A stretch of 64,000 bases of DNA from NCBI GenBank assembly GCA_043801155.1, contig JAZDMI010000021.1, positions 194,683 to 258,682 of the forward strand, in the 5' to 3' direction. Made by a program: the position numbers and the translations under genes. Positions 14,623-61,611 of the stretch are shown here, in pieces. The stretch is from Candidatus Gottesmanbacteria bacterium. Its GTDB lineage: Bacteria > Patescibacteriota > Microgenomatia > JAMCYU01. Each line of letters starts with the position of its first letter. Positions within the stretch are counted from its first letter, which is position 1. The notes under the pieces were generated by a model, which saw nothing but the letters and a program-made list of their open reading frames with translations, made no database searches and had not been told where the DNA came from.

Positions 14623-16980
14623 ATGATTTCCTCCTTAAAAAAAAGATGGCCAATATTATTTTTTCTCGTTTTCTTATTAATTTTCTTTCGTAAAACATTT
14701 TTTGCCGGGCTATTACCAATTCCATCTGACCTACTAGTCTCATGGTTTTTTCCTTATTCCTCAGGGGGGTTTATTGATTACAATTCCTGGACTACCCATA
14801 AAGGCTTAGTGGCCGACGATGCCGTGCGTCAACAATATCCATGGAAAACATTTAGTGCCAAGCAGTGGGAAAATGGCAATGCGCCGCTTTGGAATCCTTA
14901 TGCTTTTTCAGGTTACCCGCAGTTAGCGAATCTACAAACGGGAGCCTTTTATCCTCTAAATTTTTTATTTATTCTAATCGATCCAAAGATAGCCTGGACA
15001 ATACTAATTATGGCTCAACCACTATTGTCGTTTATTTTTATGTATCTTTTCTTGAAAACACTGCGTCTTTCTCAAATAAGTGCTGCCTTTGGCAGTCTTA
15101 TCTTTATAGGAATGACATTTGAAATGCTCTGGTTAGAACAAATGATAATTGGACATACGACTTTATGGTTACCTTTAGTTTTATTATGTATTCAAAAAGC
15201 ATCAGAGGGAAAAAAGAAATGGGCGGTTTTAGGAATCGTTGCCTTAACCATGTCTATTTTGGCTGGTTATGCCCAAACATCATTATATGTCGTTCTGATA
15301 GCCTTATCATATTTTATTTATAAATTATTTTACGTTAATAATAAAAAAGAATTTATTACTATTGGAATAGTGCTGTTTGTATTCCCACTTTTATTATCGG
15401 CAATACAATTATTACCGGTTTTTGAAATTTATAATTTTTCTGCCCGAGAGGGAGAAGCATCCCAAGCCTTATTTGGTAAATTTTTAGCTACCCCAAGACA
15501 ATTATTAACTCTATTTTCATCAGATATCTTTGGTAACGTTGCTACAAAAAATTTCTGGGGCGATCAATATACTGATTTTAACCTTTTTTTTGGCATAATA
15601 GCGTTATTAGTAATAGTGACCGGTATCAGAACAATGATAATTAGTAGATTCAATCTACGAGAATGCAAATTGTTTATTATTTTAGGATTGGTTGGTTTAG
15701 CCCTAGCGATTCCGCCGCTTGGTTTTCTTCCTCTTATTTTAAATATTCCGATACTTTCCACCGGAGTTCCGGCAAGATTTATCTTTATTTTTCAATTCTG
15801 TGCCTGTATTGTTGCAGCCTTTTGTTTTGATTGGATAATAAAGGAAAAATTAAATCGATTTTCGATTAAACCCGCGACTCTAATTTTTATTTTTATTATC
15901 TTATTATCCTTGAATTTCTTCTTTTTAGCTCGTGTTACTCCAAACATAGCCAATAAAACAAATTATCTTGTTAGTCTTCGTAATTTAGTTTTAACTATCG
16001 GTATTGCAGGTTCTGGTTTATTGGGATTATATAGTTTACGGTTTTCAAAGATAAGATATGCCGGAATGATATTTATCATCATATTGGCTGCACTAGAATA
16101 CCTCTATTTGGGAAATAAATACTTGCCATTTGCTAAAAAAGAATATTTATTTCCTGATCATGTACTTTTAACTTTTTTAAAAGAGCAACCGGGAATAGAC
16201 CGATTTTGGGGAGAAGGATCAGCAAAAATTGGCACAAATATACCTACCTACTATGGACTTTATTATCCCGAAGGTTACGATTCTCTATATATTAAGCGTT
16301 ATGGAGAGCTAGTAAATGCTGCATATGATGGTCAAATTACCAAAAAAATTCCCCGAAGTGATGTTAATATTAATGAAAAGTCTTTATATAAAGAAAGATT
16401 ACTTGACATACTAGGAGTAAAATTCATCTTAGACAAAAATGATATACCTAAATCGGAGTTTGAACCAGAAGACTGGAAGTTTACTCCGGATCGTTATAAA
16501 TTAATTTGGCAGCGTGAGAAATTTAAAGTTTATGAAAATCTTTATTCTTGGCCAAGGATCTATTTTGCCCAAGATATTATCGTTAAGGATAATGATCAGG
16601 AGATAATTAATGAAATTTATAAAAGTAAGGGAAAAAATATTGCCGTAATAGAAAAACCATTAGAGGAAAATTTTAAACCCGATAATCTGGGTAAAATAAA
16701 CCTACTCAAATATTCTCCAAATAAAATTATTATAAATAGCCAATCTCAGGAGCAAGGATTTTTAGTCATATCTGATAATTACTTTCCCGGGTGGGAAGCC
16801 TATATCGATAATCAAAAGACAACTATTTATCGGACAAATTATACTTTTCGTGGTATCAGTGTTCCTGCCGGAGATCATCAAATCATATTTTCTTATAATC
16901 CATTTTCTTTTCGTTTGGGATTTGTTATTTCATTAATTAGCTTATTTGGGATTATAGCAATTTACTTTATCGTCTTATGA
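14623..16980 (+). CDS. YfhO-family membrane glycosyltransferase (GT-C)
   Basis: 785 aa. N-terminal YfhO signature YPWKTF...NGNAPLWNPYAFSGYPQLANLQTGAFYPLNFLF. C-terminal YFPGWEAYIDNQKTTIY...AGDHQIIFSYNP module. Confidence 0.75.
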   Translation: MISSLKKRWPILFFLVFLLIFFRKTFFAGLLPIPSDLLVSWFFPYSSGGFIDYNSWTTHKGLVADDAVRQQYPWKTFSAKQWENGNAPLWNPYAFSGYPQLANLQTGAFYPLNFLFILIDPKIAWTILIMAQPLLSFIFMYLFLKTLRLSQISAAFGSLIFIGMTFEMLWLEQMIIGHTTLWLPLVLLCIQKASEGKKKWAVLGIVALTMSILAGYAQTSLYVVLIALSYFIYKLFYVNNKKEFITIGIVLFVFPLLLSAIQLLPVFEIYNFSAREGEASQALFGKFLATPRQLLTLFSSDIFGNVATKNFWGDQYTDFNLFFGIIALLVIVTGIRTMIISRFNLRECKLFIILGLVGLALAIPPLGFLPLILNIPILSTGVPARFIFIFQFCACIVAAFCFDWIIKEKLNRFSIKPATLIFIFIILLSLNFFFLARVTPNIANKTNYLVSLRNLVLTIGIAGSGLLGLYSLRFSKIRYAGMIFIIILAALEYLYLGNKYLPFAKKEYLFPDHVLLTFLKEQPGIDRFWGEGSAKIGTNIPTYYGLYYPEGYDSLYIKRYGELVNAAYDGQITKKIPRSDVNINEKSLYKERLLDILGVKFILDKNDIPKSEFEPEDWKFTPDRYKLIWQREKFKVYENLYSWPRIYFAQDIIVKDNDQEIINEIYKSKGKNIAVIEKPLEENFKPDNLGKINLLKYSPNKIIINSQSQEQGFLVISDNYFPGWEAYIDNQKTTIYRTNYTFRGISVPAGDHQIIFSYNPFSFRLGFVISLISLFGIIAIYFIVL

Positions 16981-20930: not shown

Positions 20931-20942
20931 ATATATCTTTGT

Positions 20943-24257: not shown

Positions 24258-26222
24258 TTGATCTTTCTTGACAGTATCTTCATAAAATCTTTTCTTACCA
24301 ATACCTTATTTTTCTTCTGGTTTATAGCGGCATCAATTTTAGCTTTTTATATTCCGGCTGATATTGTTCTTGGAAAGAGACTTTCTAGCTTATCTTCGAT
24401 ATTAGAAAAAATATCGATTAGATTATCAATTGGTCTGGTACTTTGGGCTTACCAGACAATTATTTTTGGCTATCTTAAATTAAGATTTCTAAGTTATTTA
24501 TATATTATATTATTCTTAATTATATGGTTTCATAAAAAGTTTTATTTGTCGATTAATATTAAGGAATTTTTTAAATTAAAGACGAATTATCTACTTCTTT
24601 TAGTTTTTATTCTCGGAATATTCGGACAAGTATTGCAATTTTTACCCCTAGGTTTTAAGTTTACTGAAGGTATATACTCAACAGCCTCAGCTAATGATGA
24701 TGCTCTTTGGCATGCTGCTCTGACAACGCAAATTATTAACCGTTATCCACCCTTTGAACCTGGTTTAGCTGGAGTTGAGGTTCACAATTATCATTATTGG
24801 GCAAATATTGTTATGGGGGATTTCATCCGTGTGTTTAAACTACCAATAATGCCAACAATATTTATATATTTTTCACTATTTCTTTCTTTCTTACTAGGTG
24901 GAGTAAGTTATGTTTTGGGTAAGATCTTAAATTTTTCAAAAGTGGGTATCATTATTTTTGTCTATCTCCAGTATTTTTCTTCAGACATAATTTATCTTCT
25001 AATAATGTTTACACGCCATACTTTAGATTTTACAGTTCAGCCTCTTGAGGCCGGAACGATGTTCCTAGAAAATCCTCCACGGGCTTTTTCCATCATTGTT
25101 GCCTTATCAAGCATCGTTCTATTAGTTTCCTGGTTAAGGAAACAGGATAGACGAATTTTAATAGTCTTAATACTTCTATCATCATCAATCATTGGTTTTA
25201 AGGTGAATACAGGCATAATGGTTTTGGGGGGATTTTGTTGCTTGAGTCTATATTATCTTTTCAGAAAGAATTTTAATATTTTGATAATTACCATCAGCAT
25301 AATAATTTTAAGCCTTTTGATATATCTACCGGTTAATCGTAATTCTGGTACCCTTTTTTATGCTCCATTTGAAATGTCGAGAATGTTTGCTGTCCAGCCT
25401 AACATAAACTTAAGCAGATTGGAATTAGCACGCCGAATCTATGAAAGTAATTTTAATTATTTTCAGGCGCGACGGATGGATTTAATGATGTTAACTTTAT
25501 TTTTAATCAGCGAATTCGGCGTCAGAAATTTAGGTTGGTTACCGCTACGAGTTACTCTCATTAGTATAGGTTATCCATTGCTGATATTTCTCTATGGTGG
25601 GATATTCATGGCAATTTTTTTAGGAACATTTTTTTATCAAACGACTGGAGGAGCAAATATTTTTAATTTCTATTTAGCAGCTAGTTTATTTTTATCTATT
25701 TTATCTGTACCAATTCTAAGTCAATTAATTCAATCAAAAAAATCATTAATAAAGGCTATCATAATTATTTTATTACTTTTATCAACACAACCCAGATGGA
25801 TTAGTAGTGTTTCATCATATTATGAATCCTTTTTATATGTATATAGGGAAAAAAGAACTGTTCTTGATACCAGCGAATTGGAAGCATTAAATTTTATCAA
25901 TAAGAATACAGAGAAAAACTCAATAATTATGGTTGTCAGTCAGGGTTTACATCCGGCAGTTTTTACTCAAAGGAACCTTTTTCTTGCCGGCAAAGGGATA
26001 CTGGAGAGCCATGTAGTTCCTTTTAAATCCCGTGAAGAAGTCGTGGAGATAGTTTTATTTAGTCCAAGTGCTAAAATAGTTAAAGAGACATTAAAAAATA
26101 ACCAGATTGATTATTTATTATTTAATACTGGTCAACCATCGATACCGGCTGGATTTGAGAACGTTTCATTAAAAAAGGTATTCCAAAATAAACAGAATAC
26201 GGTTTTTAAATTTTCAAATTGA
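24258..26222 (+). CDS. Large polytopic membrane protein of unknown function (TTG start; RBS AAGAAAGAGG upstream)
   Basis: 654 aa, more than 12 hydrophobic segments and a C-terminal soluble domain; no motif I can assign. Confidence 0.45.
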   Translation: MIFLDSIFIKSFLTNTLFFFWFIAASILAFYIPADIVLGKRLSSLSSILEKISIRLSIGLVLWAYQTIIFGYLKLRFLSYLYIILFLIIWFHKKFYLSINIKEFFKLKTNYLLLLVFILGIFGQVLQFLPLGFKFTEGIYSTASANDDALWHAALTTQIINRYPPFEPGLAGVEVHNYHYWANIVMGDFIRVFKLPIMPTIFIYFSLFLSFLLGGVSYVLGKILNFSKVGIIIFVYLQYFSSDIIYLLIMFTRHTLDFTVQPLEAGTMFLENPPRAFSIIVALSSIVLLVSWLRKQDRRILIVLILLSSSIIGFKVNTGIMVLGGFCCLSLYYLFRKNFNILIITISIIILSLLIYLPVNRNSGTLFYAPFEMSRMFAVQPNINLSRLELARRIYESNFNYFQARRMDLMMLTLFLISEFGVRNLGWLPLRVTLISIGYPLLIFLYGGIFMAIFLGTFFYQTTGGANIFNFYLAASLFLSILSVPILSQLIQSKKSLIKAIIIILLLLSTQPRWISSVSSYYESFLYVYREKRTVLDTSELEALNFINKNTEKNSIIMVVSQGLHPAVFTQRNLFLAGKGILESHVVPFKSREEVVEIVLFSPSAKIVKETLKNNQIDYLLFNTGQPSIPAGFENVSLKKVFQNKQNTVFKFSN

Positions 26223-29310: not shown

Positions 29311-30372
29311 ATGGTGAAGATTGGTTTTTACGATCCTTATCTTGATAGTCTCGGTGGGGGAGAGCGTTATATATTAACACTGGCTCAAGATTTAAGTCAG
29401 AATAATCTAGTTGATATTTTTTGGGGTAATCAGGATATAAAGGACGGCGTAAAAAAGATTTTAGGTCTAAACATAGACAAAACGAGATTAGTGGAAAATA
29501 TTTTTACTCGTAAAAAAAATTTACTCGAAAAATTGAGTATAACTAGTAAGTATGACCTGATTTTTTTCCTAAGCGACGGAAGCATTCCCAGCACCCTAGC
29601 TAAAAAGAACATTCTTCATTTCCAAATACCGTTTAATCATCTAAAAACAAATACGATTATTAATAAAATAAAACTTTTTCGATTTAATAAAATCATCTGT
29701 AATTCTCTTTTTACCAAAAAATTTATCGATATTACTTACGGAGTAGATAGTCTAGTCATATATCCTCCAGTTAATACAATAAATTACCCTGAACTTTCGA
29801 AAAAGAATCTAATATTAAACGTTGGTCGATTTACCAGCTATCATGAATGCAAAAAACAACAGGTTATGATTGATATTTTTAAAACAATGGTTGATCAGGG
29901 ATTAAAAAAATGGGATTTCTATTTGGCTGGAGGTCTGTTAGATGCCGATAAACCATATTTTCAAAAATTAAAAGAGCAGATTAACGGTTATCCGATTAAA
30001 CTGTTTCCAAATATTCCTTTAACTGATCTTAGAAGTCTATATAGTCAGGCAAGAATTTATTGGCACGCAAATGGTTTTGGCGAAGATGAGCAGGTGAATC
30101 CGGAACTTTTTGAACATTTTGGTATTTCTGCAGTTGAAGCTATGGCCGCCGGAGCGGTTCCCTTTCTTTATGATGGCGGCGGGCATAAAGAAATCATAAA
30201 TAAAGAATGTGGTTTTCTTTGGCGAAATAAAGAAGAGTTGATTGTTCAGACAAATTCAGTTTTATATGATGACAGTATCCTTCTCAAATATTCGATCGAG
30301 GCTAGAAAAAGAGCTCAAGACTTTTCTTGCGAAACCTTCTTAAGGAGAATGAATGAGACCATTTTTAACTAA
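29311..30372 (+). CDS. GT4 (GT-B fold) glycosyltransferase
   Basis: C-terminal EHFGISAVEAMAAGAVPF (E-x7-E motif of retaining GT4 enzymes); 353 aa, no TM. Confidence 0.65.
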   Translation: MVKIGFYDPYLDSLGGGERYILTLAQDLSQNNLVDIFWGNQDIKDGVKKILGLNIDKTRLVENIFTRKKNLLEKLSITSKYDLIFFLSDGSIPSTLAKKNILHFQIPFNHLKTNTIINKIKLFRFNKIICNSLFTKKFIDITYGVDSLVIYPPVNTINYPELSKKNLILNVGRFTSYHECKKQQVMIDIFKTMVDQGLKKWDFYLAGGLLDADKPYFQKLKEQINGYPIKLFPNIPLTDLRSLYSQARIYWHANGFGEDEQVNPELFEHFGISAVEAMAAGAVPFLYDGGGHKEIINKECGFLWRNKEELIVQTNSVLYDDSILLKYSIEARKRAQDFSCETFLRRMNETIFN

Positions 30373-32671
30373 ATACTGGCCCCTTATCTTTATCTTGCTG
30401 GTTAATATAATTTTTTTTAAATCCTGGTTACTTGATAAAAAACTTCCAATTCCAGCAGACACAATCGTTGGTATGTATCATCCCTGGAGAGATTTTTACC
30501 GCCAAGAATATCCCAATGGAATACCTTTTAAAAATTTTCTTATCACGGATCCGGTTCGGCAACAATATGTTTGGCGAAAACAAGTAATCGAGCTTTTGCA
30601 AGATCGACAATTGCCCTTATGGAATCCTTATAATTTTTCCGGGATGCCGCTTTTAGCCAATTTCCAATCAGCCTCTTTCTACCCATTAAATATATTATTT
30701 TTCTTACTTCCATTTAATTCCGCTTGGAGTTTTTTAGTTTTTCTTCAACCTTTGTTAGCCGGGATTTTCTTGTATCTATATCTTAAGAATTTACACCTTA
30801 ACCAATGGTCAAGTTTATTTGGTAGCATAATATTTTCTTTTGGTGGTTTTTCGATTGCTTGGCTTGAATGGAATACTATCCTGCATGTAGGATTATGGTT
30901 ACCTTTGATCATGCTTTCAATCGATAAAATCATAAATAATTCTAAAAAGATAGAAAAGGAAAAACCGCAATTGCTTTTAAAAAATAGGAATATGGCAAGA
31001 TGGTCTTTTATTTTTGTTTTAAGCTTATGTTCCTCATTTTTTGCCGGCCACCTTCAGGTCTTTTTTTATATCGCTAGCTTTTCTCTCATTTATTTATTAG
31101 CTAAATGGTGGTATTACGGCCACAATCGAAGAATACTATCAATCTTTGTTATCTGCTATTTACTATTTGTTGTCATTACTTCAATTCAGTGGTTACCTAC
31201 ATGGCAATTAATAAATTTTAGCGCTCGAGATTTTAACCAAATGAATTGGCAGCAGGTCGGATGGTTTGTTCCCTGGCAAAATCTTATTCAGTTTATTGCG
31301 CCTGATTTTTTTGGTAATCCGACTACCTTAAATTATTGGGGGGAATGGAATTATGGCGAGTTTATTGGTTATATTGGAATTATACCGCTTATCTTTACGT
31401 TACCAATTCTTATATGGAAAAGAAATAAAAATATTCTCTTTTTTGGTGGTATTTTGATCATTTCATTATCTTTAGTCCTGCCGACCCCTATTGCAAAAAT
31501 TCCCTATTTATTACAAATCCCTTTGTTGTCAACCAGCCAACCAACCCGGCTGTTATTCTTAATTGATTTCTTATTATCTATTTTAGCGGCGTTAGGACTG
31601 GAACAGTTAATTAATGAGATAGATAATCCGAATCAGATAAAGAAGCTCATAAAAACCTGTCTATTGCTGGGATTTTTCTTTGGAGGATTATGGTTATTAA
31701 TTTTATTTGGACAAAAATGGGTAAATATATCTTTAGAAAATATTATGATTGCTAAACGCAATCTGATTCTACCGACAATCTTATTTATCGGCAGCGCGAT
31801 TTTTTTTATATGCTTATTATTTGTTCGTGTTAAACAAAAATACACGACAATAATATGTATCGTGATTTTAATTATTACTGTTTTTGATTTATTCAGATTC
31901 GGATGGAAATTTACTCCATTTACTAAAGAGAATTGGCTTTTTCCGCAAACAAAAATAACACAATTTTTATTGAATCAGACTAAGCCGTACCGCATTATGG
32001 CAATTGATAGCCGTATTTTTCCACCTAATTTTGCATCTTTTTATCAGTTAGAAGACGTATCCGGCTATGATCCTTTATACCTTAAGGCCTATGGTCAATT
32101 AGTCTCATCTTGGAATAGTGGTAAGCCCGATTTTTCACCTGTTTCTTTTAATCGGATTTTAACACCGCAGAATTATGATTCTCGTATAACTGACCTTTTA
32201 AATATCAAGTATATATTAAGCCTTAAAAATGAATCATCAGTAAAATTGAAATTAGTTTACACTGAAGGTGAGACAAGAATATATGAGAATATTAATGCTT
32301 TTCCGCGTGCTTTTTTAACCTTTGACTATATAAACGCTGATAGCGATAATCAGGCGCTGCAAATGCTATTCAATAAGAATATTAATTTGAGAAAAACAGC
32401 CATTATCACTCATGCTCAAGGTATTAAGCTTGATGGCGAAGATAACCAAAGCAAAATACGGATAATTGAATATAAACCGCAAGAAATTACATTTGCTACA
32501 ACAACTGCAAAACCGGCGATATTAGTTTTGTCACAAATTTATTACCCGGGTTGGCAGGTAAAAATAGACGGTATAAAAGATAAATTAGGTCTTTTAAAGG
32601 TTAATTACGCGTTAAGTGGTATATTTATCCCCTCAGGAAACCACCAAATTAATATTTATTCATTGTTATGA
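30353..32671 (+). CDS. YfhO-family membrane glycosyltransferase (GT-C)
   Basis: LPLWNPYNFSGMPLLANFQSASFYPLNILFF; C-terminal YYPGWQVKIDGIKDKL...SGNHQINIY; 772 aa. Confidence 0.75.
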   Translation: MRPFLTKYWPLIFILLVNIIFFKSWLLDKKLPIPADTIVGMYHPWRDFYRQEYPNGIPFKNFLITDPVRQQYVWRKQVIELLQDRQLPLWNPYNFSGMPLLANFQSASFYPLNILFFLLPFNSAWSFLVFLQPLLAGIFLYLYLKNLHLNQWSSLFGSIIFSFGGFSIAWLEWNTILHVGLWLPLIMLSIDKIINNSKKIEKEKPQLLLKNRNMARWSFIFVLSLCSSFFAGHLQVFFYIASFSLIYLLAKWWYYGHNRRILSIFVICYLLFVVITSIQWLPTWQLINFSARDFNQMNWQQVGWFVPWQNLIQFIAPDFFGNPTTLNYWGEWNYGEFIGYIGIIPLIFTLPILIWKRNKNILFFGGILIISLSLVLPTPIAKIPYLLQIPLLSTSQPTRLLFLIDFLLSILAALGLEQLINEIDNPNQIKKLIKTCLLLGFFFGGLWLLILFGQKWVNISLENIMIAKRNLILPTILFIGSAIFFICLLFVRVKQKYTTIICIVILIITVFDLFRFGWKFTPFTKENWLFPQTKITQFLLNQTKPYRIMAIDSRIFPPNFASFYQLEDVSGYDPLYLKAYGQLVSSWNSGKPDFSPVSFNRILTPQNYDSRITDLLNIKYILSLKNESSVKLKLVYTEGETRIYENINAFPRAFLTFDYINADSDNQALQMLFNKNINLRKTAIITHAQGIKLDGEDNQSKIRIIEYKPQEITFATTTAKPAILVLSQIYYPGWQVKIDGIKDKLGLLKVNYALSGIFIPSGNHQINIYSLL

Positions 32672-39892: not shown

Positions 39893-41290
39893 TGGTGAAA
39901 GTAAATACCAGTTAGTTTCAGTTATGGCTGTAGGTGTTGCTTCATTAATATCTACCAGATCGCCAAATTTAGCATACGGTAATAGTGCAACATTTTTCGG
40001 TAACGAACACTTTAAACCAACGCCAATCTTTCGTCCTTCTTCGCTATAGCGATTATCCATATCAAGTAATAGTGTCATCGCCTGAGCCGGTTCACGATCT
40101 TGCTGACAGTAATATATTGAAAATTTGTCACCCGGATACTTTTGATAAAGCAGATTAACTCTTCGTTTGGCATCAGGATGGGCCCAGTCAGTAACCAAAA
40201 GCGGTTTGATATTGATAAGTGCTATTAAAAAATAAACACCGAGTAAAACTGCGCCGATGGCTTTTGACCTTTTTATAATTTGGTATAGAACATATCCGGT
40301 AAATAGAAAAATGTAGGGATGGAAAAACTGTAAATACCCAAATGATTTTTCACCACGCCAATAACGAAGATAAAATACCATAATCAAAAAGTGGATGAAA
40401 AAAATTATCCAGGGAGTTGCTAAATGCTTTTTTAGTATACTTTGGATAAATATGATTAAAAAAATTCCAATAATGAGTATGGAAAATATTGGATGTATAC
40501 CGGTGACATACGACCAAAAGCTTGGCCAAAAATTTCCCAAATATGTAAGCCAGCGGGTACTTGTCCATAAACGGTATTGATCGTATAAGAAAAATTGTAC
40601 TAAACCTCGCGTATTAAACCAATGGTTGGTAAATTCAAAAAAAAGTAGCGGCAGAAAGCTTAAAAAAAGCCCTAAAAAAACTAGAGGCAGAAATTTCCTT
40701 TTATCTTTATAAAATAATAAACACAACGGTAGAAGAAGGAAGAGAACCGCCTGATAATGCATATTGATCATCAGTCCCAAAGAGAAACCTAATAATATTC
40801 CCCACCAAAGAGGAACGCTTTTTTTAAAAATTTGCATAAATAAAATTAAACTAAGAACCCCAAAAGGAGAAACAAATGACGGTTGTAGTAATGACGTACT
40901 AGCAGAAATTTGAGCTGGAGAAAATGCGGTTAAGGCCGCAACAAGAAGGCCAAACATAGGACCAATAAGCAGATTCCCTATAATAAACATACCAAAAATA
41001 GTAAACAATGACAGAAAGCCATTGGTTATCCATGGCGCCCAGATAAACGGAAATATTCGTTGAAAGAAAATTAGTATATAGTAGTACCAAGGACCAAACG
41101 TAAACGGACCCAAAGACGAAAATGATCCGGTCAATGGTAACTGGAATTGTTGAGCACCCTCTCGGGCGACTATAGCATCCCGTCCGCTATCACCACCCAG
41201 TGACCAACGACCTGGTGTATTGTAAAATCGAAAATATAATCCAACGAGCAGAATTAAAATAAAAATGATAAAAAGGTATTTTTTTCTCAC
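39842..41290 (-). CDS. Polytopic membrane glycosyltransferase, GT-C ('family C' paralog 2), minus strand
   Basis: RFYNTPGRWSLGGDSGRDAIVAREGAQ...GPFTFGPWYY, parallel to LGDEGRDVLVVKRM...GPIYYY in ORF 6762. 482 aa. Its 3' end overlaps the 3' end of the convergent + strand gene by 51 bp. Confidence 0.5.
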   Translation of the reverse strand: MRKKYLFIIFILILLVGLYFRFYNTPGRWSLGGDSGRDAIVAREGAQQFQLPLTGSFSSLGPFTFGPWYYYILIFFQRIFPFIWAPWITNGFLSLFTIFGMFIIGNLLIGPMFGLLVAALTAFSPAQISASTSLLQPSFVSPFGVLSLILFMQIFKKSVPLWWGILLGFSLGLMINMHYQAVLFLLLPLCLLFYKDKRKFLPLVFLGLFLSFLPLLFFEFTNHWFNTRGLVQFFLYDQYRLWTSTRWLTYLGNFWPSFWSYVTGIHPIFSILIIGIFLIIFIQSILKKHLATPWIIFFIHFLIMVFYLRYWRGEKSFGYLQFFHPYIFLFTGYVLYQIIKRSKAIGAVLLGVYFLIALINIKPLLVTDWAHPDAKRRVNLLYQKYPGDKFSIYYCQQDREPAQAMTLLLDMDNRYSEEGRKIGVGLKCSLPKNVALLPYAKFGDLVDINEATPTAITETNWYLLSPLGIFNDVTRWWFKLQP

Positions 41291-41311
41291 AATATGTTTA
41301 TTTAAAAATAT

Positions 41312-43009: not shown

Positions 43010-43036
43010 CTAATTAAGGTATAATTACTAATAACA

Positions 43037-53500: not shown

Positions 53501-55174
53501 ATGCCTAGATATATAAGAAATAACCTTTTTCTTATTTTAATTTTAGTCTTATCTTTTTGCCTGCGGTTTTGGCAGTTAGGCAGTATTCCGTCCGGGATTC
53601 ATGCAGATGAAGCTGTTACTGGTTATACTGCTTATAGTTTAGGTAAAATAGGAGTTGATCTTGGGGGTACCTTTAATCTATTTGGAATAACTGATGTTAA
53701 TATTGGCGGGACTGCACCGCCAATATATACTTTTATATTAGTTCCCTTAGTTAAGATCTTTGGACTTAGTATTGGGATTATTAGATTACCATCAGCTATA
53801 TTTGGAGTTCTCTCGGTCATTTTAGTATATTTAATTAGTAAGAATTTGTTTAAATCTCAGCAACTTTCTCTTCTAATTACTTTCCTTTTTGCCGTTAATC
53901 CTTGGGCAATCCATATTTCCCGGCAAGGGATGCTAGAATCAATATCCTTACTTTTTGTTCTAGCCGGAATATTTTTTTTCCTTTATAGTGATAATAAAAA
54001 ATATTTATTTATTATTTCTGCTTTATTTTTAGGTTTATCTTTTTTTGTTTACGATGCCCCAAAAATCTTCTTGCCTCTGTTTGTGTTAGCCCTGTTTTTT
54101 TATAAAAAAGATATGATTTTTAGGAATAAAAAATACTTTTTAATATTTATTATCGTATTTTCAATTTTTCTTTTAGTATTATTTCAACAGACTTTTTTAG
54201 TCGGAGAATATAAGGAATTTACCAAATCTAGCATAATTAATATTAACAAGATTGCTGAAATGGTTGATGTTGAGAGAAATCTTTCACTGGCACCCCTTTG
54301 GTTAACAAAAATTTTTCATAACAAGTTGACAGTAGGTTTTAAAACTTTTTTAAACAGCTATTCTACAGTTTTTTCCTTAAACTGGTTTTTCTTTAATGGT
54401 TCAAATAATCTTCAGCAATCGGTCGGACGTCATGGGCAATTCTATTTTTTTGAATTGCCTTTTTTCTTCTATGGATTATATTTATTGTTCAAGACCAATA
54501 AAAAATTGTTCCTCTTTTTATTATCTTGGATTTTCATCGGAGCCTTACCCGGTGGATTAACTAGTGGTAATTATGCCTATCGTTCAGTGCATATTTTACC
54601 AGCGCCGATATTCTTTTCCGGTTTAGGATTATATAGTTTTTGGCACATGTTAAAAAAATCATCGGTTGTTAAGCAATTGATTTTAAAATTAATTCTAATT
54701 ATTATTTGTTTTTCATTTATAACTAGTTATTTTCTAACATATTACTTTGACTACCCTGTCTATGCATCAGAATGGTGGGCTAAGCAGCAAAACCAAGCAT
54801 TAGAATATGCTCAATCACGGGAACATTCTTATCAAAAGATATTTATTGATGGTGAAGGATCTTGGGTTGTTATGTACGCCTTCCAAAATAAAATTGATCC
54901 CAGTATGTATAGACAGGCATATCAAAACCAAGTTTTAGTCAATAACACAAAAACTATCCAATTGGGTAAATTTTACTTTGGACAACTAATCCCTTCGGAA
55001 GAAAGTGATACTTTTAAATGCTCATACGTTAAAAATTGTACTCCGTCCATCTATTTTCCTAAAAATTCATTGGTTATTACTAATGCATTGAATTTTCCAA
55101 AAGAAAAATATGTTAAAGCTTTTTATGACCCCGGTGCGGTACGTATTATCTTTAAAGCATTCGCCGTCAAATAA
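53501..55174 (+). CDS. PMT/ArnT-like GT-C membrane glycosyltransferase ('family D' paralog 4)
   Basis: SGIHADEAVTGYTAYSLGKIGVDLGG; IFHNKLTVGFKTFLNSYSTVFSLNWFFF; 557 aa. Confidence 0.5.
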   Translation: MPRYIRNNLFLILILVLSFCLRFWQLGSIPSGIHADEAVTGYTAYSLGKIGVDLGGTFNLFGITDVNIGGTAPPIYTFILVPLVKIFGLSIGIIRLPSAIFGVLSVILVYLISKNLFKSQQLSLLITFLFAVNPWAIHISRQGMLESISLLFVLAGIFFFLYSDNKKYLFIISALFLGLSFFVYDAPKIFLPLFVLALFFYKKDMIFRNKKYFLIFIIVFSIFLLVLFQQTFLVGEYKEFTKSSIININKIAEMVDVERNLSLAPLWLTKIFHNKLTVGFKTFLNSYSTVFSLNWFFFNGSNNLQQSVGRHGQFYFFELPFFFYGLYLLFKTNKKLFLFLLSWIFIGALPGGLTSGNYAYRSVHILPAPIFFSGLGLYSFWHMLKKSSVVKQLILKLILIIICFSFITSYFLTYYFDYPVYASEWWAKQQNQALEYAQSREHSYQKIFIDGEGSWVVMYAFQNKIDPSMYRQAYQNQVLVNNTKTIQLGKFYFGQLIPSEESDTFKCSYVKNCTPSIYFPKNSLVITNALNFPKEKYVKAFYDPGAVRIIFKAFAVK

Positions 55175-56672
55175 GAATTTTATTATATCGTACCAATTCC
55201 TTATTCTATCTATAATTATTCTTCTAATTGGTAGTATTCCTCGGGTGATCGAACTGCTAACTGGTAACTATCTATTTGAATATGACCAGGGAGTTATTTT
55301 TCAATCAATTAAAAAAATTGTCGTTGATTATAAATTAACCCTAATTGGAACAGAAGTGGGAGGTATTGGTGGTTTTTTCCAAGGACCTGGTTGGTATTAT
55401 CTCCTATCCATTCCGTTTATAATAAGCGGTGGTAACCCTTATGGTGCGATGATTTTAATGTATATATTAGGATTTATAACAATATCTTTATCAATAATTA
55501 CCGTTACTCATATATATGGCAAAAATACTGCCTTAATTGTTGGATTTTTTATTGCTATTTCGCCGGCAATTATTTCCCAATCTCGTTTTATTTGGGCTCC
55601 ATTTCCAATTTCGCTTTTAACTGTTTTATTTCTTTATTATCTTTACCGGGTTTTTAATAACCAAAAAGAATTTCTTCCACAATCAACACTAATGCTAGGA
55701 TTAATGACTCATTTTGAAACAGCAGTAGCGGTTACTCTTTTAGTTACGGTACTTATTCTTATTCCTATTTTTATATTCAAAAAATTAACAACTTGGAAAA
55801 TGCTTTTTTTATCTGGGATTATATTAGTAGTATCTCAATTACCGCTAATCCTTTTTGACTTACGACATAATTTTTTGAATCTAAAAGGAATATTACGATT
55901 AATATTAACTACTGGGGGATCAAATCATAATTTAATGACGCTATTATATAATCGATTAGATATTTTTAAAGGCGTTTTATTAGACTCATTCCCCATGACC
56001 TACTACTGGTGGCCGTTTCTTCTTATTATATTAATTGGGATATTGATGTTTTTAAGTGATAATAAAAAATCTCCAAGTCAAAAAATGATGATTTTTTATT
56101 TAGTCTTTTGTCCATTTCTAATTTTTTTATTATTTTTAGGATATAATAAAGCAATTTGGACGTGGTGGATAATCGAGTTACATATTTTTTATTGCTATCT
56201 TATTGGAATAATATTGGCTTATTTTTGGGAGAAAAATTATTTAAGAATTCTCGTCAAAATAACTTTAGTATTTTTCTTTTTATTGAGTGTATATCAAACT
56301 TATAATTTATATAATAATGATTATAATGATTTTGGTGGTGTCCACAAAATTAAAGGTAAAATTCAGGCCTTAGATTATATTTATCACGATGCTAATAATA
56401 AGCCTTTCAACATAATGATTTTTTCGCCGCCAATTTATACCGACCCTTATGATTATTTACTTTGGTGGTATGGTAAAAGTAAATATAGATATGTCCCGGA
56501 AAAGAAAATTGCCGGAACCCTTTATCTATTAATCGAGCCAGATTCATATAAACCATGGTCGTATAATGGGTGGTTAGAGACGGTAATTAAAAAAGGAACG
56601 GTCATCAATAGAAAAAATCTTCCGAGTGGTTTTATAATTGAGAAAAGGTTGATAGGAGATAATAAGATATGA
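55110..56672 (+). CDS. Polytopic membrane glycosyltransferase, GT-C ('family C' paralog 4); start uncertain
   Basis: ELLTGNYLFEYDQGVIFQSIKKIVVDYKLTLIGTEVGGIGGFFQGPGWYY. The ATG at 55110 gives a 65-bp same-strand overlap with the upstream gene. No in-frame ATG exists after the upstream stop until far downstream, so either the overlap is real or a non-ATG start is used. Confidence 0.45.
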   Translation: MLKLFMTPVRYVLSLKHSPSNKNFIISYQFLILSIIILLIGSIPRVIELLTGNYLFEYDQGVIFQSIKKIVVDYKLTLIGTEVGGIGGFFQGPGWYYLLSIPFIISGGNPYGAMILMYILGFITISLSIITVTHIYGKNTALIVGFFIAISPAIISQSRFIWAPFPISLLTVLFLYYLYRVFNNQKEFLPQSTLMLGLMTHFETAVAVTLLVTVLILIPIFIFKKLTTWKMLFLSGIILVVSQLPLILFDLRHNFLNLKGILRLILTTGGSNHNLMTLLYNRLDIFKGVLLDSFPMTYYWWPFLLIILIGILMFLSDNKKSPSQKMMIFYLVFCPFLIFLLFLGYNKAIWTWWIIELHIFYCYLIGIILAYFWEKNYLRILVKITLVFFFLLSVYQTYNLYNNDYNDFGGVHKIKGKIQALDYIYHDANNKPFNIMIFSPPIYTDPYDYLLWWYGKSKYRYVPEKKIAGTLYLLIEPDSYKPWSYNGWLETVIKKGTVINRKNLPSGFIIEKRLIGDNKI

Positions 56673-58306
56673 AAAAGCATCTCCCTCTTTTTATTCTTCT
56701 TATACTAGCGTTTATACCAATGCTTGATTTCTTTTATCCGGGATTACCTTTAACTCATGATGGTCAAGATCACGTTGCCCGGATAGCCAGTTTTTATCAA
56801 TCGTTGGTTGAAGGAAACCTCATTCCTAGATGGGCAGGTAATCTAAATTGGGGCTATGGACATCCAATCCTAATGTTTCTTTATCCCTTGTCATCCTACA
56901 CTGCGTCTTTTTTCCATATTCTTGGCCTAGACTTAGTTAATAGTATCAAAGTAGTTTTTGTTATAAGTTTTGTTTTTTCCGGATTATCGATGTATTTGTG
57001 GATAAGTAGTCTATGGGGACGGAAAGCAGGATTAGTATCAGGATTACTTTATATGTTTGCTCCTTACCATTTTGTAGATATATACGTTAGAGGTGCTATT
57101 GGGGAGAATTTGGCTTTTGTTTGGCCACCGCTAATATGTTATTTTGCCTATACATTATCAAAAAAAGTTAAATATCGTCATTTGCTGGGCTTAGCATTAT
57201 CATTTGCCGCTTTGATTTTATCCCACAATGCTTTAAGTATAATGTTTTTTCTTCCGATAATAGGTTATATGGTATTTTTAGTAATCGAGTCAAATAATAA
57301 AAAGCTGACCGCTTTCTGCTTTCTGCTTTCTTCGATTATCGGTTTAGGATTAAGCGCATTTTTTTGGATTCCTGCTTATTTTGAAGGCAAATACACTCTT
57401 CGAGATATTGTGACCAAAAATAATATTACTGGTTTTGTTGAGAATATCCAGCGTTTAATCTGGTTTCCTTGGAGTTATGATGGAGCCGATAATATTCCAG
57501 TCCAGCTTGGTATCATGCAATGGATAATAATTTTAATTAGCCCGCTCGTAATTTGGTTTTTTAGGCGAAAGAAGATGAGTTTTTGGAAATTTTTAGTATT
57601 TCTTCTATTTATATTTTGGGTGTCAATATTTATGATCCTGCCGGTATCCCGTCCGCTCTATAACGTTTTCCCGGCATTACAAAAGCTTCAGTTTAGCTGG
57701 CGTTTTTTATCATTGGCAATATTTACTCCGGCGATATTCGTCGGTGCATTAATATATTTATTTCCAGACAGGATCGGGACACTTTTTACATCAATAATAG
57801 TTATCGGAATATTGTTATTAAATAAAAATTATTGGCATGCTCAAAGTTATCTATATCAAAATGAATCATTTTACCAAGGAATTTATAATGGAACTACGGA
57901 TACTGGTGAAAGTGCACCCCGTTGGTCGGTTCGATTTATGGAAAAACGTCCAAAATCACATATAGAAGTTATTGATGGTCAGGCGAACATTAAAGAAATT
58001 AAGAGAAATACAAATGAACATCAATATGAGATCAATACCACCACAAAAACAAGAATCCGTGAAAATACTCTCTATTTCCCAGGCTGGCAGGTACTTATAG
58101 ATAATCAACCATCAGCAATTGAATTTCAAGACGAACACAACCGGGGATTAATAACATTTTTCGTCAAACCCGGTAAACATGTAGTTACCGTAAAATTTGG
58201 AGAAACAAAATTACGTTTGGTATCTGATATTATCAGTTTCATGAGTCTACTATTTTTAATAGGGACATTTTTCTTTAAAAAAAGAATATTAAATATTTCA
58301 AAATAA
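56669..58306 (+). CDS. 'Family B' polytopic membrane protein (paralog 5)
   Basis: LTHDGQDHVARIASFYQSLVEGNLIPRWAGNLNWGYGHPILMFLYPL; FFWIPA and QFSWRF; C-terminal LYFPGWQVLIDNQPSAI...KPGKHVVTVKF. Confidence 0.55.
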   Translation: MKKHLPLFILLILAFIPMLDFFYPGLPLTHDGQDHVARIASFYQSLVEGNLIPRWAGNLNWGYGHPILMFLYPLSSYTASFFHILGLDLVNSIKVVFVISFVFSGLSMYLWISSLWGRKAGLVSGLLYMFAPYHFVDIYVRGAIGENLAFVWPPLICYFAYTLSKKVKYRHLLGLALSFAALILSHNALSIMFFLPIIGYMVFLVIESNNKKLTAFCFLLSSIIGLGLSAFFWIPAYFEGKYTLRDIVTKNNITGFVENIQRLIWFPWSYDGADNIPVQLGIMQWIIILISPLVIWFFRRKKMSFWKFLVFLLFIFWVSIFMILPVSRPLYNVFPALQKLQFSWRFLSLAIFTPAIFVGALIYLFPDRIGTLFTSIIVIGILLLNKNYWHAQSYLYQNESFYQGIYNGTTDTGESAPRWSVRFMEKRPKSHIEVIDGQANIKEIKRNTNEHQYEINTTTKTRIRENTLYFPGWQVLIDNQPSAIEFQDEHNRGLITFFVKPGKHVVTVKFGETKLRLVSDIISFMSLLFLIGTFFFKKRILNISK

Positions 58307-58310
58307 TATA

Positions 58311-58838
58311 ATGAAAAAGATTCTTATTATATTTATTTATATTTTCGTAATTTATTTATTTTCCACTACGATATATGCTCAATCGTCGTACGTTTTGCCT
58401 TATCCATCTTATATGCCAGGAAGTATTTTATATAAACCTCATCTTCTATGGGAAGAAATCTCAAGTTATTGGTATTTCGGGACCTTATCTCAATTTAAAT
58501 ATAATTTAAAACTAGCAGATAAATACTTAGTTGAAGCAAAAATCCTATTTGAGTACCAACAGTACCCATTGGCAATAAATGCACTTGAAAAGTCTGATAA
58601 ATATTTTCAAGAAGCGACCGTTAGTTTAAAATTTGCCAAACAACAAGGGAAAAATATTAATCTTAAACAAGATATATATAATCAGGCTGCACTTAAACAT
58701 ACAGAAACACTCGATGATTTGGAATCATTTTTACCGAGCAAATTTACCTGGTTACCGGAAAAAGCAGCCGCCACAATATTGAATATAAAACCAATCATTG
58801 ATAATTCTATAAAAATACGTAGAAAATCATATTTATGA
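58311..58838 (+). CDS. Small secreted protein with cleavable signal peptide, unknown function
   Basis: MKKILIIFIYIFVIYLFSTTIYAQS, then a hydrophilic 150-aa domain rich in predicted helices (LKLADKYLVEAKILFEYQQYPLAINALEKSDKYFQEA). Confidence 0.45.
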   Translation: MKKILIIFIYIFVIYLFSTTIYAQSSYVLPYPSYMPGSILYKPHLLWEEISSYWYFGTLSQFKYNLKLADKYLVEAKILFEYQQYPLAINALEKSDKYFQEATVSLKFAKQQGKNINLKQDIYNQAALKHTETLDDLESFLPSKFTWLPEKAAATILNIKPIIDNSIKIRRKSYL

Positions 58839-59959
58839 TAATAAGTTTATATTTAATAATATTATCCTTTTTAACTGTTTTTTCCTATAGATTCATCGAT
58901 GATAATTTCCCCCTAACACTTCCTCCTTATATTCATGATTTTACACATCTCGAAAGATCAATAACGACAATAATTTTTATCGTAATTTTATTCTTTATGT
59001 TCACGGGATTTACCATTTTGTGGCGTCAAGTAGTACAAAAAAGAATCTCTACGATTAAACTTAAATATTTAATTACCTTTACTGTAATAATACTGATTTT
59101 TGCATATCCAGCGTTTTCAAATGATATTTTTAATTACATGGCCACGGCCCGGGTCAGTTATTTTTATCAAGAAAATCCATATATTATGATGCCGATTGAA
59201 TTTATTGGTGAACCGATGCTTAAATTCATGCACGCGGCTAATAAGATCGCTCTTTATGGTCCAATCTGGATTGGTTTAACCTTTTTACCGTTTTTAACTG
59301 GATTGGGAAATATTATTTTAACGCTTATCTCTTTTAAGATTTTTATTACATTATTTTATGTTGGGATTATTTGCCTAATATGGAAGTTATCAAATCATAA
59401 TCTTTCCAGTTTAGTTTTTTTCAGTCTTAACCCGTTAGTATTAATCGAAACGCTAATTTCATCACACAATGATATCGTGATGATGTTTTTTGTTTTATTT
59501 AGCCTGCTGCTTATTAAAAAATATAAAGTTTTTGCTTTATTTATGTTTTTATTTTCAATACTAATAAAATATTCGACGATAACACTTATACCAATATATT
59601 TATATATTTTATGGAAAAATATAAAAAAACAAAAAATTGATTGGGAAAATATATATTTATACGCTGCTATTTTAATGTTCCTAACAATGCTAATAGTAGC
59701 TCCACTACGAGAGGAAATTTATCCCTGGTATGGGATTTGGTTTTTGACATTTCTATCATTAGTTCCAAAAATAGAACTACAATTTTTATCACTAGTATTT
59801 TCCCTTGGATTATTATTACGATATGTACCCTTTATGCTCTGGGGAACTTATTTCGGACCAACACCAGTAGCAAAAACCATCTTAATGATTACCCCAATTG
59901 GTTTAATGTTATTTCTCCATATATTTCGAAAGTTATGGTTAAAAAAATTTCTCCGCTAG
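58835..59959 (+). CDS. Polytopic membrane protein, putative GT-C glycosyltransferase ('family E' paralog 2)
   Basis: FSNDIFNYMATARVSYFYQENPY; SSHNDIVMMFFVLFSLLLIKK; YGPIWIGL. Collinear with ORF 10845-12044. Confidence 0.5.
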   Translation: MIISLYLIILSFLTVFSYRFIDDNFPLTLPPYIHDFTHLERSITTIIFIVILFFMFTGFTILWRQVVQKRISTIKLKYLITFTVIILIFAYPAFSNDIFNYMATARVSYFYQENPYIMMPIEFIGEPMLKFMHAANKIALYGPIWIGLTFLPFLTGLGNIILTLISFKIFITLFYVGIICLIWKLSNHNLSSLVFFSLNPLVLIETLISSHNDIVMMFFVLFSLLLIKKYKVFALFMFLFSILIKYSTITLIPIYLYILWKNIKKQKIDWENIYLYAAILMFLTMLIVAPLREEIYPWYGIWFLTFLSLVPKIELQFLSLVFSLGLLLRYVPFMLWGTYFGPTPVAKTILMITPIGLMLFLHIFRKLWLKKFLR

Positions 59960-61611
59960 CCATAGTAATATTTTTTACTGTGTTGGCAGGTTTAGGGTTA
60001 TTGCACTCTGGATTAATACCTACCCACGATGGTGAATATCATATTGTAAGGTTTTATGAATTTAACCAGTCATTGCAGGATGGAAATTGGTATCCTCGTT
60101 GGGCTCCAGATTTAAATTATGGTTTTGGAGTACCATTATTTAATTATGTTTACCCTTTCCCAAATTATATTGCTTCATGTATCCATACTCTTGGTTTTAG
60201 TTTTATTGATGCATTTAAGCTTAATTTATTTATGGCTACCATTGTTGGAGGAATATTTTTCTATTTATGGGCGAAAATGTTTTGGGGGGAAATCGGAGGA
60301 ATAGTTTCTTCAACTTTCTATTCATTTTCACCTTATCGCCTTGTTGATATTTATATTCGTGGTTCGGTGGGCGAAGTGTGGGCATTATCTTTTTTCCCAG
60401 CATTTTTGTGGTCAGCTACTTCTTTTTTCCAGAAAAGAAACGAATACTATCTTCTCTTATCAAGTATATTTCTTGCTTTAACAATTCTTTCTCATAATAT
60501 TTTAGCTTTAATGTTTTTCTTTTTTGATTGTTCGTATATTGTTTTCCTAATTTTTACAGTAAAAAAGAGAAGTGACTATGTATATCAATCAATTTTTTTA
60601 ATTCTGTTGGGTCTTGGTTTATCATCGATATTTTGGATTCCGGCATTAATAGAAAAGAATTTTGTTACCGGACTGGAAATTTTTGATTACCAGGCTCATT
60701 TTCCAGAAGTTTATCAATTATTAATTCCTTCATGGGGTTCTGGATTTTCCGGAGGAAATTTGGGTGAACAAATGTCATTTCAAATCGGTTTAGCCAACCT
60801 CTTTGCCGTTACTTTAGGTATCTTATGCATCATTCTATATTTTTCGCGTAAGCAGGTTTTTTTAGCTAAAACTATTATTTTTTCGTTATTATTTTTTTCA
60901 TTTATATTTTTTATGATGACCAGATTATCTATACCTATTTGGGAAAAGATATCGCTTTTGAGGTATTTTCAATTTCCTTGGCGTTTTTTAAGTATAACGA
61001 TATTGTTAACATCCTTTTTAGCTGGCGGAATTTTTCCATTATTAAGAAAAAATCAAAAACTTTTTATGGGTAGTTTTATGATTTTAGTAACATTTCTATT
61101 AGGCTACGGCTATGCTAAACCTGCTTACTATCAAAACCGAAATGATGATTATTATCTCAATAAATCAATCTTTATCGATGGAACAAATAGCCCCGGTAAT
61201 TATTTTAATACAATTTGGATTAATACCAGACCAAAAAGAGAACCTGAGAAATTAAAAATTAATAAAGGAAAAGGTTCAATTAAAATTAATTTTATTAAAT
61301 CGACTCATTATAATTTTTCTACCCATGCCGAAACCCAGATAGAAATTCTGGTTAATACAGCATTTTTTCCTGGTTGGGCAGCTTATATTGATAATAAACA
61401 ACAAGAATTATCAAAAAGTACTGCCGGTTTATTTATGTTTAATATCCCTTCAGGTGATCATCAGGTCGAAGTTAAATTTGAAAATACTTTGACTAGAAAT
61501 ATTAGCCAAATATTATCCGGCATGGCTCTTATTTATATTAGTTATCAGTTGTTATTCAATCTAAAAAGGCAAAAAAAATATGGAAACGACAAATCAACTC
61601 ATCTGATATAA
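59935..61611 (+). CDS. 'Family B' polytopic membrane protein (paralog 6)
   Basis: Start chosen at the internal ATG (MVKKISPLAIVIFF...) instead of the track ORF start 59641, which would overlap the upstream gene by more than 300 bp. IPTHDGEYHIVRFYEFNQSLQDGNWYPRWAPDLNYGFGVPLFNYVYPF; FWIPA and QFPWRF; C-terminal AFFPGWAAYIDNKQQEL...PSGDHQVEVKF. Confidence 0.55.
   Translation: MVKKISPLAIVIFFTVLAGLGLLHSGLIPTHDGEYHIVRFYEFNQSLQDGNWYPRWAPDLNYGFGVPLFNYVYPFPNYIASCIHTLGFSFIDAFKLNLFMATIVGGIFFYLWAKMFWGEIGGIVSSTFYSFSPYRLVDIYIRGSVGEVWALSFFPAFLWSATSFFQKRNEYYLLLSSIFLALTILSHNILALMFFFFDCSYIVFLIFTVKKRSDYVYQSIFLILLGLGLSSIFWIPALIEKNFVTGLEIFDYQAHFPEVYQLLIPSWGSGFSGGNLGEQMSFQIGLANLFAVTLGILCIILYFSRKQVFLAKTIIFSLLFFSFIFFMMTRLSIPIWEKISLLRYFQFPWRFLSITILLTSFLAGGIFPLLRKNQKLFMGSFMILVTFLLGYGYAKPAYYQNRNDDYYLNKSIFIDGTNSPGNYFNTIWINTRPKREPEKLKINKGKGSIKINFIKSTHYNFSTHAETQIEILVNTAFFPGWAAYIDNKQQELSKSTAGLFMFNIPSGDHQVEVKFENTLTRNISQILSGMALIYISYQLLFNLKRQKKYGNDKSTHLI

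Follow-up and report, generated by a model that had tools for sequence, protein, structure and literature searches.

The locus and its ten YfhO-like genes

The window analysed here is a stretch of 64,000 nt from a genome of Candidatus Gottesmanbacteria (Patescibacteria; candidate phyla radiation, CPR), with a guanine-plus-cytosine content of about 0.33 and tightly packed genes that lie almost all on the plus strand. Ten of its open reading frames (ORFs), spanning 47 kb, encode YfhO-like membrane proteins of the GT-C glycosyltransferase type that share one C-terminal module, and all ten are present in the ORF list of the window at the positions collected in Table 1. They fall into two length classes, four long forms of 771-824 amino acids (aa) and six short forms of 518-568 aa, and are named below by their start positions. 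For the tenth ORF the mechanical start is TTG 59641, which overlaps the gene at 58835-59959 by about 320 nt; ATG 59935 is the likely true start, since the N-terminus then aligns with those of the other short forms.

Table 1. YfhO-like genes of the window and the C-terminal modules of their products. Positions are those of the window; profile positions refer to the Pfam YfhO model of 835 columns, and long-form and short-form profiles are the module profiles described in the text.
Feature	Position	Strand	Evidence
14623, long-form YfhO-like GT-C, 785 aa	14623..16980	+	Pfam YfhO 106.5 bits; NCBI name 'YfhO family protein' (100% identical record)
Module of 14623, aa 676-763	16648..16911	+	YfhO profile 755-825/835, E 7.4e-13; matches PgfM2 end
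Terminal transmembrane (TM) helix of 14623, aa ~760-785	after module	+	Hydropathy
16977, short-form YfhO-like GT-C, 518 aa	16977..18533	+	PTPS_related 20.2 bits (below cutoff); BLASTP to other short forms E 1e-27 to 1e-52
Module of 16977, aa 402-489, then terminal TM helix	18180..18443	+	Long-form profile E 1e-6; no Pfam match for module alone
18526, short-form YfhO-like GT-C, 568 aa	18526..20232	+	PTPS_related 38.0 bits, PMT_2 34 bits, DUF6541 26.6 bits
Module of 18526, aa 453-540, then terminal TM helix	19882..20145	+	YfhO profile 766-821, E 9.3e-5; long-form profile E 2.8e-10
26986, long-form YfhO-like GT-C, 771 aa	26986..29301	+	Pfam YfhO 49.4 bits
Module of 26986, aa 658-745, then terminal TM helix	28957..29220	+	YfhO profile 763-825, E 4.1e-5; short-form profile E 6e-7
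30353, long-form YfhO-like GT-C, 772 aa, truncated, without terminal TM helix	30353..32671	+	Pfam YfhO 75.6 bits
Module of 30353, aa 686-772, last strand shortened	32408..32668	+	YfhO profile 752-822, E 5.5e-7; short-form profile E 6e-12
32668, long-form YfhO-like GT-C, 824 aa	32668..35142	+	Pfam YfhO 80.2 bits; C-terminal end matches ends of NCBIfam PgfM1, PgfM2
Module of 32668, aa 708-795, then terminal TM helix	34789..35052	+	YfhO profile 753-825, E 8.7e-13
38249, short-form YfhO-like GT-C, 547 aa	38249..39892	+	PTPS_related 76.5 bits
Module of 38249, aa 419-506, GNS replaces GxH, then terminal TM helix	39503..39766	+	YfhO profile 763-822, E 2.4e-6
47861, short-form YfhO-like GT-C, 545 aa	47861..49498	+	Pfam YfhO 29.4 bits on N-terminal core (profile 84-379); PTPS_related 20.0 bits
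Module of 47861, aa 429-516, then terminal TM helix	49145..49408	+	YfhO profile 761-824, E 1.4e-3; long-form profile E 7.4e-4, 14.5 bits
56669, short-form YfhO-like GT-C, 545 aa	56669..58306	+	PTPS_related 49.1 bits; modelled protein
Module of 56669, aa 425-512, then TM helix 514-535	57941..58204	+	AlphaFold2 model; YfhO profile 755-823, E 7.3e-4
59935, short-form YfhO-like GT-C, 558 aa from ATG 59935	59935..61611	+	PTPS_related 53.1 bits, YfhO 42.9 bits on core
Module of 59935, then moderately hydrophobic terminal segment	61231..61494	+	YfhO profile 755-823, E 4.6e-6; long-form profile E 1.5e-11

The shared C-terminal module

An earlier note, made from the sequence of the window, had proposed that the ten proteins share one C-terminal module, and this observation is confirmed and statistically solid. 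Each protein contains exactly one PGW, located 64-83 aa from its C-terminus (41 aa in the 30353-32671 protein). A ten-way alignment of the 88 residues around it yields the consensus (Y/F)(Y/F)PGW-x-(A/V)-x-(I/V/L)-(D/N)-(G/N/D/S/K) ... G-x-H-x-(V/I), in which P, G, W and the glycine of GxH are invariant at conserved spacing. Two details of the original description stand only in part: the histidine of GxH occurs in eight of the ten proteins, with GNS in 38249 and GKF in 47861, and the final TM helix follows the module in nine, whereas the 30353-32671 protein ends ...GNHQINIYSLL, inside the last strand of the module. Its stop codon and the start codon of the next paralog share bases in the sequence ATGA, and this 30353/32668 junction looks like the remnant of a tandem duplication.

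A module profile built from the four long forms and searched against the six-frame translation of the window recovered all six short forms, with E-values from 1.5e-11 to 7.4e-4 and the next segment at 0.24; the reciprocal search with the short-form module profile recovered all four long forms (8.5e-13 to 6e-7), the next segment lying at 1.2. All-against-all BLASTP at 1e-5 placed exactly these ten proteins in one cluster, in which the two groups are joined by C-terminal high-scoring segment pairs; the 16977 module, for example, aligns with the 14623 tail at 42% identity over 71 aa (E 4e-6). No further copy of the module was found in the six-frame translation of the window or in the 16 other membrane proteins of the window that were tested, seven of which are PMT_2-like GT-Cs.

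A similarity that is merely compositional, arising from hydrophobic or low-complexity tails, or one left by recent gene conversion between neighbouring paralogs, would suit the tandem arrangement of the genes and the score of the weakest member, 47861, whose 14.5 bits lie barely above the 11.7 bits of the best of 1,200 shuffled short-form modules (real modules, 14.5-39.1 bits). The 47861 module is also the most divergent copy, with LNK for IDG as well as GKF for GxH. Both explanations are nevertheless extremely improbable. A compositional artefact is ruled out by the fixed spacing of the invariant P, G, W and G, by the shuffle control and by cross-profile E-values down to about 1e-13 with a clean gap to the noise, and the TM helix was left out of the profile used for the database search below. 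Recent gene conversion is ruled out as well, because module identity is just 11-44% and no higher than core identity, which argues against recent homogenisation.

Predicted fold and position of the module

The fold was examined in an AlphaFold2 model of a short form, the only class modelled, represented by the 56669-58306 protein (50 sequences; predicted local distance difference test score, pLDDT, 91.6; predicted template-modelling score, pTM, 0.92). In the model, helices extend to residue 384 and are followed by a loop (385-430), eight beta strands within 432-510 (432-436, 439-446, 450-457, 461-468, 473-477, 480-482, 494-499 and 502-510) and a helix at 514-535, which is the last membrane span. 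PGW (471-473) opens the fifth strand, and block pLDDT over the module is 93-97, with one block at 90 and a level of about 95 for the module as a whole. The 88-residue module modelled alone, from the ten window sequences only, adopts the same fold at pLDDT 88.2. The module is accordingly predicted to be a discrete all-beta domain, with eight strands in about 80 aa, situated outside the membrane between the TM core and the terminal anchor helix, in keeping with the extracytoplasmic domain first suspected. The roughly 45-aa extent originally given to it was too short: since the eight strands span 432-510 in the model, that segment corresponds to the second half of a conserved unit of about 80-88 aa.

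By hydropathy, with which the AlphaFold2 model agrees, the long forms have an outer loop of about 240-260 aa between their last two TM helices, compared with about 120 aa for the short forms; the 30353 protein is without the last helix bounding that loop. A second motif, nearly invariant in the short forms, lies in the outer loop just N-terminal of the module, reading TTDTGE-xx-P-x-W in the 56669 family (57893-57925, aa 409-419), SEYLPLW in 16977 and EEYEPIW in P0124. As a candidate functional loop, it lies at what we take to be the position where STT3 and PglB carry WWDYG.

Compared with the PDB using Foldseek, the full 56669 model matches the solved GT-C enzymes STT3, AglB, PglB, AftD, Pmt4, AftA and ArnT with probability 1.00, E-values down to 1.7e-5 and template-modelling scores (TM-scores) of 0.37-0.47, which bears out the assignment of the module to GT-C enzymes. 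At the sequence level, no solved relative was found for a long form, for a short form, or for the profiles of the short-form family and of the module. For the module itself, Foldseek returned nothing among solved structures at E 1e-3 (best 0.025), and no solved structure contains it; the nearest shapes are accessory sandwich domains of the glycoside hydrolase families GH30, GH146, GH95 and GH31, with TM-scores of 0.57-0.59 and root-mean-square deviations of 3.3-3.8 A. No significant match of the module to a known carbohydrate-binding module was found by fold or by sequence.

Soluble domains on the outer face after a GT-C core are also found in STT3, PglB, AglB, EmbC and AftD, and the core of the model matches STT3, PglB, AglB and AftD. 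The C-terminal domains of these five enzymes end the protein and are not known to return to the membrane, and none of them is among the listed structural matches of the module. A further, weak likeness is to PEGA-like or transthyretin-type sandwiches: an 89-aa fragment of a Ser/Thr kinase (PDB 9k1u_D) also shows the pattern PG-x-x-V-x-(V/L)DG...G-x-(H/Y)-x-(V/L). This fragment aligns with the second half of the module (e.g. 58079-58204) through PG-x-Q-V-x-LDG...G-x-Y-Q-L-E-I at E 0.097, which is not significant, and no PEGA match to the modules appeared in the Pfam scan at E<=1.

Family identity

Pfam gathering cutoffs are 28.5 bits for YfhO (PF09586) and 26.4 bits for PTPS_related (PF10131). 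As whole proteins, six of the ten pass the YfhO cutoff, namely the four long forms and the short forms 47861 (29.4) and 59935/59641 (42.9), while the other four short forms have no Pfam YfhO listing at E<=0.01. Two short forms match the N-terminal part of the YfhO profile directly. Taken in isolation, nine of the ten modules match only the C-terminal end of Pfam YfhO (positions ~752-825 of 835, E 7.4e-13 to 1.4e-3), and two long forms score best against YfhO within the module itself (profile positions 753-835 of 835). In NCBIfam, the long-form tails match the ends of the streptococcal protein glycosyltransferases PgfM1 and PgfM2. The PTPS_related cutoff is passed by 18526, 38249, 56669 and 59935/59641 and failed by 16977 (20.2) and 47861 (20.0), with matches limited to the first ~330 (1-333) of 621 profile positions; the module alone has no match to the PTPS_related model.

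The module is the standard C-terminal tail of the widespread YfhO-like family and is not new. What is extended here is its range, the known C-terminal end of YfhO being present also on short forms that are now misnamed. Pfam YfhO, which includes Bacillus subtilis YfhO and streptococcal PgfM1, PgfM2 and PgtC2, comprises enzymes of the same GT-C type whose last two TM helices are separated by a large outer loop, and B. subtilis YfhO itself combines many TM helices with such a loop (PMC5836110). The proteins of the window resemble this family in the last ~80 Pfam profile positions, which are the module, and in having GT2 genes nearby as possible partners. Unlike classical YfhO, the six short forms are without about 250 aa of the outer loop and four of the six fall below the YfhO cutoff, and the setting also differs, the host being a CPR genome with ten paralogs in 47 kb.

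PTPS_related is a member of the GT-C clan CL0111 of unknown function (PMC7801869). Four short forms resemble it closely enough to pass its cutoff, and NCBI naming follows that family; the family name, however, is silent on the tail shared with YfhO, and the module lies outside the matched region. The 56669 product is thus listed by NCBI as '6-pyruvoyl-tetrahydropterin synthase-related protein' (100% identical record), and public records hold long 'YfhO family protein' and short '6-pyruvoyl-tetrahydropterin synthase-related protein' entries on the same contig. In its passages on YfhO, Durairaj et al. 2023 (PMC10584680) place a YfhO-like family, 'Component 27', and GT39-annotated linkers between classical YfhO and STT3/PglB in sequence space. 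The short-form homolog P0083 is named 'glycosyltransferase family 39 protein', like the linker proteins of those passages, and the median length given there for 'Component 27' is 665 aa, compared with ~545 aa for the short forms here; a C-terminal module is not described in the same passages (PMC10584680). Literature searches found no paper linking CPR bacteria with YfhO and none naming YfhO together with a beta-sandwich, carbohydrate-binding or C-terminal domain. In the parts of the literature covered, no description of the module as an independent domain was found, and it has no domain model of its own.

Distribution and conservation

The module can be traced by itself in other genomes. A module-only profile that excluded the TM helix, searched against 1.84 billion database representatives, matched 40,776 protein clusters at E<=1e-3, of which 6,526 reach E<=1e-10. 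In about 130 of the best 150 representatives, 20-39 aa separate the end of the module from the C-terminus, and its full-length hosts measure either ~520-560 aa or 730-840 aa. Short database matches (84-370 aa), consisting mostly of the module, look like gene fragments from short contigs.

A degenerate DNA pattern, which samples only the YYPGWxAxIDG variant and so gives a lower bound, located this variant in at least 120 species genomes from many phyla, those among the matches listed being Bacteroidota, Patescibacteria, Chloroflexota, Acidobacteriota, Planctomycetota, Proteobacteria, Cyanobacteria, Armatimonadota and Nitrospirota. Among the same listed matches, the motif lies 60-99 aa from the stop codon in 108 of 113 ORFs and is followed by a hydrophobic tail in 107 of 111; about 4% of these module-bearing ORFs are without the tail, like the 30353-32671 protein. 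Across 181 copies, the tryptophan and the GxH glycine are conserved in 100%, the PGW glycine in 95%, the proline in 94% and the histidine in 92%, with aspartate (89%) or asparagine (11%) at the D/N position.

Two Bacteroidota proteins of ~820-840 aa (L001, Prevotella; L005, Roseivirgaceae) and a third ORF, from a Pseudorhodoplanes genome (L060), reach Pfam YfhO solely via the module, and the N-terminal 700 aa of these module-only YfhO proteins (~530-840 aa) have no Pfam match at E<=1e-3. A similar R-W-T-N-x-x-F-G-G-M-P loop was seen in them by eye. Since some members are recognised by Pfam only through it, the module is the best-conserved part of the superfamily. It also recurs in giant predicted proteins of 1,093-3,329 aa (P0121, P0122, P0123, P0125 and P0141) in which two to five complete GT-C units follow one another head to tail. 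The YfhO-like units all end in the module and a TM helix, giving two to four module copies in proteins of 1,300-3,300 aa. P0122 is mixed, with a PMT_2 unit, two short-form units and two of a third core type. These giants may be real fusions or merged gene calls.

Probable joint inheritance of module and core

The earlier note took the differing N-terminal catalytic regions of the two groups as a sign of domain shuffling, a reading that the comparison of the cores does not uphold, as the cores remain homologous and collinear when the module and the tail are left out. Using window paralogs alone, core-only hhalign paired long with short forms at a probability of 96.2% (E 2.3e-9). With richer core profiles of 63-67 sequences per group, the figure rises to 98.5% (E 1.7e-15), the 309 collinear columns covering almost all of the TM core, ahead of the match of the short forms to the PMT_2-like proteins (97.2% over 129 columns) and of the long forms to the same proteins (69.8%). 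The first outer loop holds an invariant aspartate, D66 in 63 long-form and D31 in 66 short-form sequences, and in both groups an invariant tryptophan follows exactly 24 residues later within a P-x-W motif, after which comes a G-x-P motif. This aspartate, which fits the conserved acidic residue of the first outer loop in GT-C glycosyltransferases, is presumably catalytic.

Module identity averages 28.7% within groups and 20.5% between them, compared with 30.3% and 15.9% for the core, and no between-group module pair exceeds the within-group mean, a pattern in which module and core have diverged in step. The parts follow the same order in both classes, namely TM core, outer loop, module and last helix. 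Core homology, identical Asp-Trp spacing, co-varying identities and constant module position together favour one lineage over independent fusion, and the module was most likely inherited with its core. On this view the ten genes are paralogs of a single lineage that comes in two length classes, the four long forms being classical YfhO and the six short ones annotated as PTPS_related or GT39-like.

The converse view, that separate fusion events joined a mobile periplasmic beta domain to different GT-C cores, draws on the higher between-group identity of the module (20.5%, against 15.9% for the cores). It is quite improbable in the light of the 309 collinear columns, the shared spacing from Asp to Trp, the position of the module always just before the last TM helix and the lack of any between-group module pair above the within-group mean. 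Moreover, the PMT_2-like GT-C paralogs next door never carry the module (0 of 7 tested in the window).

Proposed pathway and role of the module

GT2 genes adjoin module-bearing genes at 26219, 47099, 20208 and 35145, a GtrA domain occurs in the window only fused to a GT2 (5645), and a Wzx-type gene lies at 20943. Several of the ten GT2 products of the island have their best, sub-threshold NCBIfam matches among polyprenyl-phosphate sugar synthases such as ArnC, AglJ, PgfS and PpgS. For the pathway we infer that small GT2 enzymes of the island would load a sugar onto polyprenyl phosphate, that the lipid-linked sugar would be flipped across the membrane, and that each YfhO-like enzyme would, by analogy with studied relatives, transfer the sugar from its lipid carrier to an acceptor outside the membrane. 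Such transfer has been shown experimentally for the Firmicute enzymes YfhO, PgfM1 and PgtC2 (PMC5836110, PMC12041528).

Within this scheme the module would act as a lid fixed to the outer face of the core, helping to form the substrate cavity and carrying the nearly universal polar D/N...H pair; the high pTM (0.92) suggests a fixed position relative to the core. Known acceptors of the YfhO family are chemically unrelated, comprising teichoic acids and Ser/Thr-rich protein tails (PMC5836110, PMC12041528), and because the polar residues are near-universal all the same, our best guess is that a lid is more likely than a free, lectin-like arm recognising the acceptor.

A carbohydrate-binding, lectin-like domain that holds the acceptor polymer, with each paralog serving a different glycan, would accord with the beta-sandwich fold, whose nearest solved shapes are accessory sandwiches of glycoside hydrolases, and with the precedent of a lectin-like C-terminal domain on a GT-C enzyme, mycobacterial EmbC (PMC3044687); ten paralogs would also fit ten specificities. 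Such a role, akin to the acceptor binding suggested in the earlier note, is a serious alternative but nonetheless rather unlikely. The module has no Foldseek match at the 1e-3 level, EmbC, AftD and other binding modules are not among its top matches, and PGW, D/N-G and GxH are the same across 40,776 clusters and in enzymes with unrelated acceptors, which would be unexpected of a specificity determinant.

Taken together, the segment is read as a conserved C-terminal extracytoplasmic domain of YfhO-like GT-C enzymes that was inherited with the core and takes part, as a lid, in the pathway outlined above, with a probability of roughly 0.7 for this reading as a whole. The analysis demonstrates the presence of the module, its fold class, family and distribution and the homology of the cores, and from these its history of inheritance, the pathway and its role are deduced. 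Several points weigh against the reading. All NCBIfam matches of the GT2 enzymes lie far below their cutoffs, and the docking of the lid and the placement of PGW, D and H are putative. In the profiles made from window paralogs, the N-terminal half of the short core is closer to the module-less PMT_2-like proteins (E 5e-12) than to the long forms (2e-7), an order reversed only with the richer profiles, and some module-bearing proteins, in Bacteroidota and in unit 1 of P0122, have cores that no Pfam model, YfhO included, recognises; both of these observations also speak for independent fusion. For the second half of the TM core, hhalign gives no significant alignment for any pair of groups (probability 58% at best); every pair being marginal, this region does not decide between inheritance and shuffling. 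Finally, similarity scores are no phylogeny, and an ancient transfer or loss may have contributed.

The surrounding glycosylation island

The whole window (1-64000) is one glycosylation island of the Ca. Gottesmanbacteria genome. Besides the ten YfhO-like genes, its GT-C complement comprises eight BLAST-linked PMT_2/GT39-like genes and 13139, which is PMT_2-like by Pfam. The island further holds ten GT2 and two GT4 genes, three NAD-dependent epimerase/dehydratase paralogs, the Wzx-type flippase gene (20943) and a PIG-V-like gene (49508), and nucleotide-sugar enzymes are encoded as well. With ten GT2, ten YfhO-like and about nine PMT_2-like genes within 64 kb, the share given to glycosylation is very large for a small genome. 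The minus strand carries only two PMT_2-like genes, within 39842-43009, the rest of the array being uniformly on the plus strand.

The PMT_2-like paralogs (41312-46316 and 53501-55174) have a common C-terminal soluble region of their own, without a terminal TM helix, which is a second family-specific tail in the island; a Y-x-(Y/F)-F-L-(F/Y)-Y ... P motif was seen by eye in 41312 (minus strand), 43037 and 44670. No Pfam match was found for the products of 37581-38261, 10845-13123, 24258-26222, 36059-37588 and 58835-59959, the first of which is also without an NCBIfam match. The 10845 and 58835 products are paralogs of each other, and most of the Pfam-less island proteins appear membrane-like by eye.

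Significance

The module is an ordinary feature of its family and not a new system. The size of the island points to an elaborate glycosylated envelope in a Patescibacteria organism with a small genome. For annotation, the name '6-pyruvoyl-tetrahydropterin synthase-related' is misleading when applied to the six short forms, which, given the shared tail and the homology of the cores, belong with the YfhO-type glycosyltransferases of cell envelope and protein glycosylation. Structural work could reasonably be directed at the module, which is strongly conserved and extremely widespread. A more far-reaching and tentative idea, which we consider possible though not probable, is that the YYPGW sandwich is no mere passive tail but the functional signature of the entire YfhO-like superfamily, its near-universal D/N and histidine and its PGW loop completing the donor or catalytic site. 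If this were true, defining the domain would explain how YfhO-type enzymes work and would allow reliable annotation of the short forms.

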